64,000 nucleotides of DNA, taken from the sequence record MZ501089, one strand, 5' to 3'. Numbering within the stretch: position 1 is the first letter of the stretch; each line of letters begins with the position of its first letter. The notes under the pieces were generated by a model. The model was not told the origin of the DNA. It saw nothing but the letters and a program-made list of their open reading frames with translations, and ran no database searches. The position numbers were made by a program, and so were the translations under genes. Shown here piece by piece: positions 3,505-63,987 of this stretch. Origin of the DNA: Escherichia phage KarlGJung.

Positions 3505-3681
3505 TTATGCTTTCTGCTTACCAAAACGAGAAGCATCATCTCGAAGAACCGCACGTGCTCGGCGCATGATCTTCTCAACAGTTTGATTGATACGAGAGTT
3601 CGACCCACGCTTGTAACCAGCGCGTTTAGAATCACCAACTTTCTTTTCAACTGCTTTCTTTGCTTTAACTTGTTTTGCCAT
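3505..3681 (-). CDS. small basic protein (about 58 aa)
   Basis: ORF track frame trimmed to MAKQVKAKKAVEKK...; lysine/arginine-rich; followed by a UUCG terminator hairpin. Start choice uncertain. Confidence 0.4.
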   Translation of the reverse strand: MAKQVKAKKAVEKKVGDSKRAGYKRGSNSRINQTVEKIMRRARAVLRDDASRFGKQKA

Positions 3682-3970
3682 TATAAATTCTCTTTTAAAT
3701 GAAAATGCAGGACTTATTGGCATTGCCTGCGCAAGCCCTCAAAGGGGTACTTAGGTTTTGAATATTTACCGACAGGATAACCATAAACCTCGTCATCATA
3801 CCACCAAGACTTACACAGATAACACTTTTCTGACGCATGATAGTAACATTCAAGAGGTACACCATAAAACTGCCGGGGTCTTAAAACTATAATGATTCGC
3901 AAATCATTAATCAGACAGTTCGATGGCTCCTCGATTTTAGCTCACACTAAGGCAGTGAATCTCCAATAAA

Positions 3971-17394: not shown

Positions 17395-17943
17395 ACCCAA
17401 GAAAACATCTACTGATCGTTGATACCACTGAAGGTCAAGGTATCCATTACGCACATTAAACTGATAGAACATATGACAAGGCGGTAATGCCATATATTTA
17501 AGTTCAGCTGGATTCCATGCTGAAACAATTTGACGCCTATCATTTGGCAGTTTTTTAATACGATCAATAGTTTCAACTAATTGATCCACACCGCCGAAAT
17601 CACGCCATTGTTTACCGTATATAGGACCAAGTTCACCACTATGATATCCTAGGTCTTTAGCCTGGTTTTCATAGTTATCGTCCCAAATAGTTTTACCTTG
17701 AATAAGACTACCATGTGTGCGAAGACGTAAATCATTAACATTGGTAGAACCGGAAATAAACCATAGAAGCTCAGCAATGCATGCATTCCACGCAAGCTTC
17801 TTAGTTGTTACCGCAGGAAAACCTTTAGTTAAATCCCAACGTAATTTAGTACCGAACAAAGCAATTGTTCCTGTGCCTGTTCGGTCATCGGTTTCATAGC
17901 CATTTTCAAAAATGTCTTTAATTAAATCTTGGTATTGTTTCAT
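17395..17943 (-). CDS. td: thymidylate synthase, exon 1
   Basis: 183 codons, MKQYQDLIKDIFENGYETDDRTGTGT... through catalytic ...LPPCHMFYQF... to ...VDVFLG, followed by intron-borne TAA. Confidence 0.92.
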
Positions 17944-33511: not shown

Positions 33512-33541
33512 TGTGAATAAATACCCTTAAAAGGAGGGTCT

Positions 33542-34198
33542 ATGGCAGCACCTAGAATATCATTTTCGCCCTCTGATATTCTGTTTGGTGTTCTAGATCG
33601 CTTGTTCAAAGATAACGCTACCGGGAAAGTTCTTGCTTCCCGGGTAGCTGTCGTAATTCTTTTATTTATGATGGCGATTGTTTGGTATAGGGGAGATAGT
33701 TTCTTTGAGTACTATAAGCAATCAAAGTATGAAACATACAGTGAAATTATTGAAAAGGAAAGAAATGCACGCTTTGAATCTGTCGCCCTGGAACAACTCC
33801 AGATAGTTCACATATCATCTGAGGCAGACTTTAGTGCGGTGTATTCTTTCCGCCCTAAAAACTTAAACTATTTTGTTGATATTATAGCATACGAAGGAAG
33901 ATTACCTTCAACAATAACTGAAAAATCACTTGGAGGATATCCTGTTGATAAAACTATGGATGAATATACAGTTCATTTAAATGGACGTCATTATTATTCC
34001 AACTCAAAATTTGCTTTTTTACCAACTAAAAAGCCTACTCCCGAAATAAACTACATGTACAGTTGTCCATATTTTAATTTGGATAATATCTATGCTGGAA
34101 CGATAACCATGTACTGGTATAGAAATGATCATATAAGTAATGACCGCCTTGAATCAATATGTGCTCAGGCGGCCAGAATATTAGGAAGGGCTAAATAA
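33542..34198 (+). CDS. t: holin T
   Basis: 218 aa; one N-proximal TM helix (VAVVILLFMMAIVWY) and a large C-terminal domain; matches T4 T holin size and position after gene 38. Confidence 0.9.
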   Translation: MAAPRISFSPSDILFGVLDRLFKDNATGKVLASRVAVVILLFMMAIVWYRGDSFFEYYKQSKYETYSEIIEKERNARFESVALEQLQIVHISSEADFSAVYSFRPKNLNYFVDIIAYEGRLPSTITEKSLGGYPVDKTMDEYTVHLNGRHYYSNSKFAFLPTKKPTPEINYMYSCPYFNLDNIYAGTITMYWYRNDHISNDRLESICAQAARILGRAK

Positions 34199-34471
34199 TT
34201 ATTTGTTCGTATACATCTCTAGATATCGATATACACCCTCAAAACCCTCGTTGAATTCGTCGATGAGGGTTTTCTTATCTTCTTGAGTTAATTCAGAAAC
34301 AATTTTACGGAATGAATTCTGATTTAATTTTCTACCTTCATGCGTTACTCCAATCTCATTCAGAAATGCAATAAAATTAGCACGATTCTCAACAATATCT
34401 TCTCTGGAAAATTTAATCAAAATAGACGCAACAGTAATAATTTCACGAACTGTATCAATGTTTTTATTCAT
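34199..34471 (-). CDS. asiA: AsiA anti-sigma-70 factor
   Basis: 90-aa ORF MNKNIDTVREIITVASILIKFSREDIVENRANFIAF...; T4 AsiA-like; convergent with t. Confidence 0.9.
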   Translation of the reverse strand: MNKNIDTVREIITVASILIKFSREDIVENRANFIAFLNEIGVTHEGRKLNQNSFRKIVSELTQEDKKTLIDEFNEGFEGVYRYLEMYTNK

Positions 34472-58874: not shown

Positions 58875-59663
<789 letters not shown>

Positions 59664-59667
59664 TCAT

Positions 59668-59862
59668 TTATTGCAGCAAAAAAAATGAATTATACAATTC
59701 ATCATCATATGTATTTGATAGTAATACTAACACGTTTTGCGATTTAGCATATTCATTAAACCTCGCCTGAATAGTTGGATTATCAGTAAATGATTCTCTT
59801 TTTGTCCATTTATTACGTGGATAATATCCGCATGGTAAAAAATCTAATATCATCCTCAGCAA
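59668..59862 (-). CDS. hypothetical protein (64 aa, uncertain start)
   Basis: ORF track; first codon is TTG, and the internal ATG has almost no spacing to its GAGG; may be leaderless or not real. Confidence 0.3.
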   Translation of the reverse strand: MLRMILDFLPCGYYPRNKWTKRESFTDNPTIQARFNEYAKSQNVLVLLSNTYDDELYNSFFLLQ

Positions 59863-59867
59863 TTTAT

Positions 59868-59901
59868 TTTATAATACCATAACAAGCTGAAAAAGTAAAC
59901 A
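59868..59901 (-). promoter_or_regulatory. early promoter
   Basis: Minus-sense GTTTAC, 18 nt, TATTAT. Confidence 0.5.
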
Positions 59902-59944
59902 AATTTATGAAATTTGTGATAAATATTAATTTAAAGGAGGACAT

Positions 59945-60145
59945 ATGGTACAAAAATTAATGGCACTTGTTAATGCCATAAAAGGTAATAAAAAACGTAT
60001 AGCTTTTACTATTTCTGCTATGGTAGGAATTTTACTCTGGAATTTTGTTTTATCGCCAATTGCTATTGCTCACGGCGTTAATATTCCAGTAATTACTCTT
60101 GATACATTCGTAGATTTAGCATTTGCTTTGGTTGGGTTAATTTAA
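59945..60145 (+). CDS. small membrane protein (66 aa), opposite strand to its neighbours
   Basis: ORF track; ATG start with strong AAGGAGG Shine-Dalgarno; two predicted hydrophobic helices; 3' end overlaps the gene 61 stop. Confidence 0.5.
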   Translation: MVQKLMALVNAIKGNKKRIAFTISAMVGILLWNFVLSPIAIAHGVNIPVITLDTFVDLAFALVGLI

Positions 60146-61170
60146 ATCTTGGCATATTTAGATAGCCTCATTTTAGCCATCAACCCTTGGGCAATATTAT
60201 TTTTCATATATTCCATAATTTGTTCAGGGGTTGCACCTTCCTTTCTAATCATATCATTAACATCTTTTGATTTCCAGGGAGATTTATCCCAAAACATAAC
60301 CCTTTCTCCTGCATCAACTAATTTAGTCATTCGCTTAATTGTATCAGGGTGACGAGGTTCATTATCTAAGACCCACACTCGTCTATCTTTAAATGGAACA
60401 ATTTCTAGGTCTAATTGACCACCCGTAATAGCTATACCATTTTCAATAAAAAGTGAATCTATAGGTCCTTCTAGAACATATACATCGCCATCTTTAACTC
60501 GTTCGACTCCATAGATTTTTGTTGCCTCAGGATAAGCTTTGATGGTGATATATTTTTGAGGAGCATCTTTCTTTAATGCACGTCCTTGAAAAGACTCAGC
60601 TTTTCCATTAGCATTATAAATTGGAATAACAAGACGAGGCTCAGAAATTTCCTTTTTGTATGTTCCCGGTGCTATGCTATTAACTAATTTAGGCCATTCG
60701 GTTGTAAACCAAAGATATTTCCATTTATCCTTTGGAATACAACGAGCTTTTACATATTTTATAATTGGATGGTCTTCCGCCAGTTTATCTAATCTAACGC
60801 ATGACGGAAGAGATTTAATTATTTTCTTCTCAGGTTGTTTAGGAAGTTCTTTAGGTTTTTCTACTGGACGACTTTTACCTTTTTCTTTTCTTATTTCAAA
60901 GATATACTCACGATATAAATCAGGTTCAAACTCCTTTAAATATATTCCGATTGGTGCATGATAGTTACAGTTATAACAATGAATATTTCCTTCATTATTA
61001 TCGCCATAATACCATCCACGAGCTTTATTCTGGTCGGTTTTTGAATCTCCACAAACAGGGCATCTAAACCGTAATTTAAAAGTTGAACTATTATTTACTT
61101 GTGTGAATTTAGGTAAATGAGCTAATGCACGGTATGCAAACTCATTATCAATCCAAGGTATTGATGACAT
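60142..61170 (-). CDS. 61: gp61 DNA primase
   Basis: 342 aa; N-terminal zinc ribbon (CPVCGDSKTD ... CYNC) and TOPRIM-type core. Confidence 0.92.
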   Translation of the reverse strand: MSSIPWIDNEFAYRALAHLPKFTQVNNSSTFKLRFRCPVCGDSKTDQNKARGWYYGDNNEGNIHCYNCNYHAPIGIYLKEFEPDLYREYIFEIRKEKGKSRPVEKPKELPKQPEKKIIKSLPSCVRLDKLAEDHPIIKYVKARCIPKDKWKYLWFTTEWPKLVNSIAPGTYKKEISEPRLVIPIYNANGKAESFQGRALKKDAPQKYITIKAYPEATKIYGVERVKDGDVYVLEGPIDSLFIENGIAITGGQLDLEIVPFKDRRVWVLDNEPRHPDTIKRMTKLVDAGERVMFWDKSPWKSKDVNDMIRKEGATPEQIMEYMKNNIAQGLMAKMRLSKYAKI

Positions 61171-61172
61171 TT

Positions 61173-61337
61173 TTACTCTTCTTTTTCTTTAGATTCCTCT
61201 TTTTTCTTTTTAGGAATCTGTTCAGGACCTTTATTTACTACAGCGCCTGATGTTGTTCCAGTAGAGATATTTTCAGGATTACCACCTGAATCTCCAGCGA
61301 CCATATCTTCTTTGATAAATTCTTTATATGTTTTCAT
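61173..61337 (-). CDS. small hypothetical protein (about 54 aa)
   Basis: Hand-translated MKTYKEFIKEDMVAGDSGGNPENISTGTTSGAVVNKGPEQIPKKKKEESKEKEE; directly upstream of gene 61; not in the ORF track. Confidence 0.35.
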   Translation of the reverse strand: MKTYKEFIKEDMVAGDSGGNPENISTGTTSGAVVNKGPEQIPKKKKEESKEKEE

Positions 61338-61338
61338 A

Positions 61339-61695
61339 TTAACCTCTATTCATAAAAGCATTAAAAATTTGGTCATCAATAGATGGTGCAGTAATATTTT
61401 CTGCATCATTTAGCAAATCATTAATTTCATCAGATAGCATAACACATGTACCTTTATTTCCTGTAATTGTTACTGCGCAATTACGAACGTTTTCTTTATT
61501 AAATTTTAGGTTAATATTTTCGTAATGAAAATCCTTTAATGCCGAATATATCTTTAAAATGAAATTGTCTTTTACTACAATAAACCCAACCTCACTATTA
61601 AAACGTGGTTCATGGAAACTGTAATAAACCTTTTCATCTATAAAATCGTATGAAATTTTTTCCATTTTTAAATATGAAAATTCAGAACTATACAT
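61339..61695 (-). CDS. hypothetical protein (118 aa)
   Basis: ORF track; ATG start. Confidence 0.45.
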   Translation of the reverse strand: MYSSEFSYLKMEKISYDFIDEKVYYSFHEPRFNSEVGFIVVKDNFILKIYSALKDFHYENINLKFNKENVRNCAVTITGNKGTCVMLSDEINDLLNDAENITAPSIDDQIFNAFMNRG

Positions 61696-62529: not shown

Positions 62530-62561
62530 TACTATACCATAGTCTTGTCAGCTTGTAAACT
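62530..62561 (-). promoter_or_regulatory. early promoter upstream of the dmd-like gene
   Basis: Minus-sense GTTTAC, 18 nt, TATAGT; -35 overlaps the gene 41 stop. Confidence 0.45.
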
Positions 62562-63987
62562 AAAATTTTAATTCATTTGCCAAAGCATCTAACTGAGCTC
62601 GAGTCGATTCGTTTCTTTGATAGCGATTCTGCTCAGCTTGTATCTGTTGTGAACCTGCTACCTCACTCACTTCAGTTGGAGTAGAATCTTGTTCAATTTC
62701 TACCCATTTCTGATTTCCTTTTTGAACACCCATCAAAAACTTATTCCATTTGTTCTTATCGCCATATCGTGATTTGATTTGCTTAATGAGTTGTTGTTCA
62801 GCAGCTGCTAGCTCCTCGGTTTCAATGACCGCAAGCATAAAATCAGCTGTTGCTGGAAGACCGGCAGATTCTGCAATATCGCTCATGTTAACATCAGAAG
62901 AATCCCAAGCTTGTTTACCAACCTGTGCTGCAGTCCAAAGAACAGTTTCGGTTTCAACAGCAAGAGCACGTAATTCCTCTGCAATGGCTTTAACAGTTGT
63001 GTAACTATTTTCTGAGTAAACTCTAATGCGGCAAGATTTACAAATACCCAGATAGTCGACAATAATGATTGTTGGAACAAAATTCTTCTTGAGCTTTAAT
63101 TCGTTTAAAAGCGATCGAAATGTATTAGCATCTGCTCCACCAGTAGGATACTGTTTAACTATTAAACGACCGAGAGTAGATTTCTCGCGCCATTTTTCCA
63201 TTTTTCCTTTATACTCAGCGTAAGAAATATGCCCGTCATCAATGTCATCAAGAGAAACATCAAGCATATTAGCATCAATACGCTTAGCACAGACTTCTTC
63301 TGCCATTTCCATGGAAATGTAAAGAACATTATGTCCGAGCTGCAAATAATCTGCTGCCAATGAACACAGACCTAATGACTTACCGACGTTAACACCAGCC
63401 ATTAAAACGTTCAGTGTTCCAGTTTCAGCTCCACCTTTAGTAATTTTATTTAGAATTTTGAGTCTAAATGGAACCTTACGAGCTTTATTCATATAAGATA
63501 GCCAACGTGCTTCGTAGTCATCCATCCAATCATGACCAACGTAACTATCAAATGAAATTGATAATGCTTGGCGCATGATGTCAGGAATAGCACCTACATC
63601 TGGCATTTTCTTATTTCGTTTTTCCGGAGGAAGCTCAGCATTAGTTTGAATTTCAATTATTTTAGACGTAGCATTAAACATCGCCCTTTGCTGAACATAT
63701 TTTTCTGTTTCTTTTACTAACCAGCTATGGTCTTCTGGAGAATCGGCTAGTTTCGAAATAAGTGTTTTTACACCAGAATATTCTGTTTCAGTAAATGAAC
63801 TATTTTCTAATGCAACATTTAACGCATTAATAGATGGAACGCTATGGTACTCATTAACATGAGATTTAATTAATTTGAACGTATTTTTAGCTGGACCACT
63901 TTCAAAATATTCTGAATCCATATATGGCCAAACTTTTGAAAAATAAGCTTGATCAAATATGAGATGAGAAAGAATAATTTCTACCAC
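62560..63987 (-). CDS. 41: gp41 replicative DNA helicase (DnaB-like)
   Basis: 475 aa, MVEIILSHLIFDQAYFSKVWPYMD...; Walker A MAGVNVGKSLGL; start codon appears to be GTG preceded by AAGGAG. Confidence 0.93.
   Translation of the reverse strand: MVEIILSHLIFDQAYFSKVWPYMDSEYFESGPAKNTFKLIKSHVNEYHSVPSINALNVALENSSFTETEYSGVKTLISKLADSPEDHSWLVKETEKYVQQRAMFNATSKIIEIQTNAELPPEKRNKKMPDVGAIPDIMRQALSISFDSYVGHDWMDDYEARWLSYMNKARKVPFRLKILNKITKGGAETGTLNVLMAGVNVGKSLGLCSLAADYLQLGHNVLYISMEMAEEVCAKRIDANMLDVSLDDIDDGHISYAEYKGKMEKWREKSTLGRLIVKQYPTGGADANTFRSLLNELKLKKNFVPTIIIVDYLGICKSCRIRVYSENSYTTVKAIAEELRALAVETETVLWTAAQVGKQAWDSSDVNMSDIAESAGLPATADFMLAVIETEELAAAEQQLIKQIKSRYGDKNKWNKFLMGVQKGNQKWVEIEQDSTPTEVSEVAGSQQIQAEQNRYQRNESTRAQLDALANELKF

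Follow-up and report, generated by a model that had tools for sequence, protein, structure and literature searches.

A conserved gene for a small putative membrane protein convergent with gene 61 in T4-like phages

What is a single short open reading frame (ORF) on the plus strand doing among dam, gene 61 and gene 41, all three of which lie on the minus strand? The question is raised by a T4-type (Tequatrovirus) genome segment, a stretch of 64,000 nucleotides from Escherichia phage KarlGJung (sequence record MZ501089), which in its full length is referred to here as the window. A preliminary description of this DNA had reported a 66-codon ORF with a strong AAGGAGG ribosome-binding site, opposite in orientation to the three genes and overlapping the gene 61 stop by 4 nt, and our analysis bears out the coordinates, the features, the orientation and the overlap (Table 1). 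The predicted product of 66 amino acids is MVQKLMALVNAIKGNKKRIAFTISAMVGILLWNFVLSPIAIAHGVNIPVITLDTFVDLAFALVGLI. Within positions 34300 to 64000 it is the only plus-strand ORF of at least 50 amino acids that starts with ATG and has a Shine-Dalgarno-like (SD-like) site, and the AAGGAGG in front of it occurs only twice on both strands of the window, the second copy lying ahead of the holin gene t. On the other side, the two convergent stop codons share the four nucleotides of the palindrome TTAA, an overlap that is identical in T4, ST0, VR25, Marfa and JS10. The gene 61 product differs from T4 gp61, annotated as DNA primase, at four residues, and 61.1, spackle and dmd-like ORFs sit between gene 61 and gene 41.

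Table 1. Positions of the ORF, its putative signals and its neighbours in the window
Feature	Position	Strand	Remarks
66-aa ORF	59945-60145	+	ATG start; putative small inner-membrane protein, PHROG 2024
Shine-Dalgarno AAGGAGG	59934-59940	+	4 nt ahead of the ORF ATG
Late-promoter-like motif GATAAATA	59918-59925	+	7/8 match to the T4 late promoter TATAAATA; G at -13
Predicted transcription start	near 59931	+	about 3 nt before the SD; leader about 14 nt (very short)
Promoter/SD/ATG layout, ORF	59918-59947	+	
Promoter/SD/ATG layout, holin gene t	33517-33544	+	
TTAA common to both convergent stops	60142-60145	.	ORF TAA (+), gene 61 TAA (-)
Terminator-like hairpin and U-run	59950-59979	-	codons 2-12 of the ORF; ATGGCATTAACAAGTGCCAT then TAATTTTTGT
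Gene 61, DNA primase	60142-61170	-	342 aa; convergent with the ORF
Gene 41	62560-63987	-	DnaB_C
dam	58875-59654	-	Pfam MethyltransfD12
Sigma-70 early-type promoter for the dam unit	59871-59899	-	TTTACT, 17 nt, TG-TATTAT
Remnant ORF, 64 codons	59668-59862	-	C-terminal third of a 186-aa PHROG 8706 gene

Coding status and distribution of the family

The existence of the ORF is already known, as it is catalogued in PHROG 2024 (function unknown), whose profile positions 1-65 of 65 are matched by ORF residues 2-66 with an E value of 5.4e-31. Searches by tblastn found it in 692 phage records. Identity is 90-100% in the roughly 500 Tequatrovirus records and about 50% in some 190 records from Mosigvirus or Gaprivervirus, and at every locus examined among these matches the ORF adjoins the 3' end of gene 61. 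A gp61 of at least 80% identity is present in 502 records, and an ORF of at least 80% identity likewise in 502, which speaks against any loss of the ORF in close relatives of T4. Judging by this distribution, the ORF is an accessory gene that is strictly conserved among the close T4 relatives.

Beyond these, the family extends to more distant phages. Subfamily B, of the VR25_032 type, comprises 117 records from Gapriver-, Dhaka-, Marfa-, Kanagawa- and Gelderlandvirus and occupies the same position, and Jiaodavirus and a Logan metagenome contig have a third type of the family. A profile-profile comparison with hhalign shows A and B to be homologous subfamilies (97.2% probability, E 3.7e-11), and proteins of the B, Mosigvirus and Jiaodavirus types also match PHROG 2024, with E values of 1e-24 to 1e-27. 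Altogether, diverged homologues occur in seven further T4-like genera, likewise tail-to-tail with gene 61.

The preliminary description had named beforehand what would speak against a gene, namely a reading frame that is not conserved in relatives. Eight genera keep the frame, which is open over 63-74 codons even where amino-acid identity has fallen to about 20%, and it is under purifying selection. Among 13 distinct Tequatrovirus sequences, 10, 3 and 14 variable sites fall on codon positions 1, 2 and 3, and the dN/dS ratio of 0.17 in the ORF frame is the lowest of the six frames, the other five ranging from 0.29 to 2.0. The corresponding counts are 6, 0 and 13 for Mosigvirus (dN/dS 0.14) and 21, 9 and 52 for subfamily B (pS 0.79, pN 0.16). 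As the ORF overlaps no gene by more than the 4 nt shared with gene 61, an overlapping gene cannot account for this selection pattern. On the strength of the sequence comparisons, the 66-codon ORF is a genuine gene, maintained by selection, for what appears to be a small membrane protein.

The phylogenetic range of the family has limits. Downstream of gene 61, it was not found in Roskildevirus, Krischvirus, Tulanevirus, Acinetobacter phage Acj9 and Klebsiella phage PhiK2046. Among 1.84 billion cluster representatives, a profile of the family matched six, all from T4-like phages and none from elsewhere. A combined profile of all three types (A, B and C), run against 5.8 billion clusters, retrieved 118 clusters of 41-74 amino acids throughout, with no fusions and no informative names; the contigs that carry them are T4-like in size (about 160-175 kb) where they are long enough.

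Gaprivervirus has two family members in tandem, one of type A and one of type B (VR25 locus 2495-2901). The A copy has a dN/dS ratio of 0.68 between VR25 and TH40, a value from a single pair with 22 differences, and it may be under relaxed constraint where two copies exist.

Annotation of the family is patchy. The ORF carries the name RB32ORF030w in RB51 (NC_012635) and in Shigella phage vB_SsoM_113, its homologue is a "putative membrane protein" in JB75, and hundreds of records list a "hypothetical protein". Family members elsewhere are labelled "Holin", "dCTP pyrophosphatase", "DNA packaging ATPase" or "thymidylate synthase", four names that are apparently annotation errors. The ORF is intact yet unannotated in T4 (NC_000866, 17738-17938), T2 (NC_054931, 16642-16839) and JS10 (NC_012741, 15341-15538), and T4 record KJ477684 likewise lacks it. 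T4 is the reference model for the family, so that proteomic, transcriptomic and knockdown screens that build on the RefSeq record are blind to the ORF. Our literature search, which included RB32ORF030w, T4 ribosome profiling and novel T4 ORFs, found nothing on it, and we know of no T4 genetic phenotype ever reported to map to its site. What we add to the catalogue entry is the purifying selection, an extended family of three subfamilies in eight genera, a conserved putative late promoter, a revision of the predicted topology and the resemblance to t that is described below.

Late promoter motif and variable 5' flank

The preliminary description saw no obvious late or early promoter in front of the ORF and left its expression class unassigned. 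Both statements need revision. The late-promoter-like motif GATAAATA ends 8 nt ahead of the AAGGAGG; it occurs once in the window, against an expectation of 7.1 copies. In T4 (NC_000866), the motif is at 17,709-17,716 and the predicted transcription start near 17,722. Of the 14 lineages that have a first copy of their own, 13 keep a NATAAATA motif in this position, 12-33 nt ahead of the ATG, although the flanking sequences do not align. The form GATAAATA is shared by the window, T4, T2, Lutter and the Logan contig, AATAAATA by fPS-2, PinkRuby, Mosigvirus and Dhakavirus, and CATAAATA by Gaprivervirus and Jiaodavirus. Marfavirus and Kanagawavirus (Marfa, ZX14) have the perfect 8/8 motif TATAAATA, and Gelderlandvirus has ATTAAATA, a 6/8 match. 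A strong SD is likewise present in every genus. The Lutter annotators marked the identical 8 nt as a promoter. In the VR25 tandem, the second copy lacks a separate motif and would share the transcript of the first.

How good is the motif as a late promoter? In the list of 50 T4 late sites given by Geiduschek and Kassavetis, 32 are perfect, 9 differ by an A at -13 and the remainder by some other single deviation; -13 is the most variable late-promoter position in T4 (PMC2988020). Nolan et al. reported T at -13 to be poorly conserved among T4-like phages (PMC1524935). G at this position, as in T4 and the window, is not among the variants explicitly cited in the reviews. The word ATAAATA occurs 14 times in the window (128 kb when both strands are counted), against about 47 copies expected from base composition, and several of these copies lie ahead of an SD and ATG, including those of the late genes soc and t. 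For TATAAATA, there are 5 copies on both strands and 9.4 expected. Late-promoter-like words are depleted, as would be expected if selection acts against stray late promoters in what is mostly an early region.

Strand polarity points the same way as the motif. In T4, early and middle transcripts all run counterclockwise, and late transcripts run in either polarity (PMC2988020). The ORF is on the clockwise strand, opposite dam, 61 and 41. Since only late T4 transcripts run clockwise and the motif fits, we infer that the ORF is probably expressed late. A plus-strand sigma-70-like site was not found near the ORF. Nor was there a plus-strand intrinsic terminator for about 3 kb downstream, so that, barring termination by Rho, late transcription would proceed into gene 61 in antisense orientation.

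Directly 5' of the late motif lies a hot spot of insertions and deletions. Back-to-back with the motif lies the minus-strand promoter for the dam unit, and the JB75 and Lutter annotators placed promoters there. Relatives have an intact 186-aa PHROG 8706 gene directly upstream of dam (Lutter locus 1555-2115). In comparison with Lutter, the window has a 371-bp deletion between 8-bp ATATCATC repeats, by which the start codon and about 122 codons of this gene have gone, and the remnant matches PHROG 8706 profile positions 122-179 of 186. An independent deletion in T4 took out 548 bp between TTTGTGAT repeats, the early promoter of the PHROG 8706 gene among them, and the right junction of this deletion abuts GATAAATA (T4 locus 3640-3710). 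The 701-nt stretch with the remnant has no match of 99% identity or higher in the phage collection; since the records that cover it best contain the intact PHROG 8706 gene, their alignments are split in two. A search for homologous proteins with the 64-aa remnant as query gave no candidates. The full-length PHROG 8706 protein has weak, below-threshold matches to Pfam DpnII, a GATC restriction enzyme (E 0.0045), and to BanI, and it is a possibility that this gene beside a GATC methylase is a decaying restriction partner of Dam.

The 5' flank differs among relatives: some have dam, with or without the 186-aa gene, others have a homing endonuclease, and others again have nothing there and no dam. 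Motif, SD and ORF are kept in every one of these variants. That the ORF is kept in all 502 close relatives despite the turnover of the adjoining DNA implies a real contribution to fitness in nature.

Predicted topology and conserved residues

Of the two hydrophobic helices proposed in the preliminary description, one stands and the other is doubtful. Residues ~16-42 are the only strongly hydrophobic stretch of the protein, with a Kyte-Doolittle mean of 2.0 over residues 23-41, and they form one clear predicted transmembrane (TM) helix. An AlphaFold2 (AF2) model (pLDDT 74.8) has helices at residues 2-13, 16-42 and 52-62. The first belongs to an amphipathic segment of residues 1-18 that ends in KGNKKR. 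The last follows a loop, HGVNIP, and precedes the C-terminal end ALVGLI. As a second TM helix this C-terminal segment is unlikely: the modelled helix has only 11 residues, it contains two conserved Asp, its Hessa-scale sum is +6 kcal/mol, and the segment is hydrophilic in the homologous subfamily B.

The segment before the TM helix has five basic and no acidic residues (+5), so that by the positive-inside rule the likely topology is N-in, C-out. Besides Met1, the residues that are invariant in all subfamilies are W32, N33, P38, G44 and P48. They form a W-N pair followed by Pro-x5-Gly-x3-Pro toward what would be the periplasmic end of the TM helix, and they point to a conserved face of the protein at the periplasmic end of the membrane. 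As buried Asn residues of TM helices typically drive helix-helix association, the TM Asn of this family suggests self-association or binding of a partner membrane protein.

Comparisons of structure and sequence lead back to the family itself. A Foldseek search of BFVD with the AF2 model returned family members only, Pfam and NCBIfam have no match to the protein, and a sequence search of the PDB gave nothing below E 0.28 (the best match, YejA, being noise).

Proposed role, alternatives and known systems

Together, our data suggest a model that we consider quite probable, in which the ORF is a genuine late gene for a small inner-membrane protein with one TM helix, conserved in close relatives of T4. 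RNA polymerase with gp55 would transcribe the ORF late from the NATAAATA promoter, starting about 3 nt ahead of the perfect SD, and the transcript would converge on gene 61 and probably continue antisense into it. The product of about 66 amino acids would insert into the inner membrane, its basic N-terminus remaining in the cytoplasm, and would span it with one TM helix that carries the Trp-Asn pair and has the Pro-x5-Gly-x3-Pro element at its periplasmic end. A short acidic C-terminal helix would lie at or beyond the periplasmic face. The polar TM Asn would then, in a late envelope event, bind another copy of the protein or a partner membrane protein, a step that we propose as probable but hold with low confidence.

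Which late event this could be is more difficult to say. Ranked first among our guesses, and still a tentative one, is that the protein helps to tune lysis timing or lysis inhibition around the holin T. The guess is by analogy, as the ORF and t are alone in the window in having the same promoter and ribosome-binding-site layout: a -13-variant late motif (AATAAATA or GATAAATA at t and the ORF), 8-9 nt, AAGGAGG, 4 nt and ATG. A t-like layout would give similar timing and strong translation, but the similarity of the expression signals could also be a coincidence. More broadly, and with much doubt, the ORF might be an overlooked late gene whose product is an unrecognised component of the late envelope programme, for example a partner of holin T or of RI/RIII, and whose transcript may at the same time act as an antisense brake on primase mRNA. 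If a role in lysis timing or in a late envelope step is true, the family would be a new component of one of the best-studied lysis systems. If there is no such role, what is gained is an annotation fix for T4, T2 and JS10, and misleading family names can be removed.

Could the product itself be the holin, pinholin or antiholin that forms or gates a lethal membrane lesion? It is a small, probably late membrane protein, its signals are laid out as those of the holin gene t are, and one homologue entry in UniProt/BFVD (phage OE5505) is labelled "Holin". This label, however, is one of several inconsistent automatic names in the family, and Pfam, NCBIfam and PHROGs give no match to a holin family, PHROG 2024 being the only significant PHROG. 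The single robust TM segment does not agree with the two TM segments and N-in/C-in topology of pinholins, and in place of a charged cytoplasmic C-terminal tail the protein ends in the hydrophobic GLI. A dual start at Met1 and Met6, the antiholin motif, can be ruled out, because Met6 is not conserved and is absent from the Mosigvirus-, Gaprivervirus- and B-type proteins. Josslin reportedly found in 1970 that T4 t-null mutants fail to lyse, which speaks against a second autonomous holin in T4. We regard this explanation as unlikely; by any testable criterion that can be applied to its predicted sequence, the ORF protein is not itself a holin.

The preliminary description had brought up superinfection exclusion, besides lysis timing, as a role of such proteins. 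Exclusion or immunity at the inner membrane, in the manner of T4 Imm or Sp, is another improbable role. It would suit a small inner-membrane protein whose conserved residues face the periplasm and whose gene belongs to the same block as spackle. The known T4 exclusion genes are nevertheless early and on the minus strand, whereas strand and motif of the ORF indicate late expression, and scans of PHROG, Pfam and NCBIfam, by which kinship with Imm and Sp was judged, give no family besides PHROG 2024.

It is similarly improbable that the RNA matters more than the protein, so that a late plus-strand antisense transcript down-regulates the mRNAs of primase and early replication genes and the ORF is secondary. 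The overlapping convergent stop codons and the lack of a plus-strand intrinsic terminator for about 3 kb downstream would favour such a transcript. So would the terminator-like hairpin on the minus strand (folding energy -10.3 kcal/mol, z -2.1), since a gene 61 terminator inside the ORF would make the two RNAs complementary over about 190 nt. The stem arms of this hairpin coincide with the Met-Ala ... Ala-Ile codons of the ORF, and the fPS-2 annotators marked the site as a terminator; it is a plausible candidate for the gene 61 terminator in Tequatrovirus, and it is not conserved in Mosig-, Gapriver- and Marfavirus. Rfam has no match in 59000-61500. Against an explanation by RNA stand the purifying selection on the protein frame and the conserved strong SD, which indicate that the protein itself is selected. 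Moreover, overlap with gene 61 is not required. In KEN22, the ORF and gene 61 are separated by an 18-nt gap with a GC-rich inverted repeat, CGG4-1 is without the overlap, and the Logan contig has a gene of 124 aa between the two; neither Jiaodavirus nor Gelderlandvirus has an overlap either. An antisense effect is thus possible and compatible with the late membrane-protein gene that we propose, but as the protein frame is under selection, it is not the whole story.

That the ORF is spurious, and the conserved sequence merely the 3' untranslated region and terminator of gene 61, may be suggested by the hairpin within it and by its absence from the T4 and T2 RefSeq annotation, but this idea is extremely improbable. 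It is effectively refuted by variation biased to third positions with a dN/dS of 0.14-0.17 that is lowest in the ORF frame. Against it stand also the open frame of 63-74 codons down to about 20% identity in eight genera and the conserved strong SD and invariant W, N, P, G and P, and we reject the hairpin as the cause of the sequence conservation because it is specific to Tequatrovirus.

How, then, does the ORF compare with systems that are known? With PHROG 2024 and RB32ORF030w it forms one and the same family, alike in length, tail-to-tail position and signals, with no substantive difference. T4 Imm and Sp are likewise small envelope proteins of T-even phages, and the Sp gene belongs to the same block, at a distance of about 1.6 kb, but both are early genes on the other strand. 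Class II holins or pinholins such as S68 of phage 21 resemble the ORF product in being hydrophobic, about 65-70 aa long and late, the last being probable for the ORF. Pinholins have two full TM domains against the one clear TM segment of the ORF product, a dual-start motif for which the ORF has no conserved counterpart, and a charged C-terminal tail where the ORF product ends in a hydrophobic C-terminus. Holin T shares with the ORF product the late class, which is probable for the ORF, the plus strand of the window, one TM segment and the N-in/C-out topology, which is established for T and predicted for the ORF. It differs in that T is a protein of 218 aa with a large periplasmic domain that belongs to Pfam Phage_holin_T, and the ORF encodes 66 aa with almost no soluble domain and no match to Phage_holin_T or any other Pfam family.
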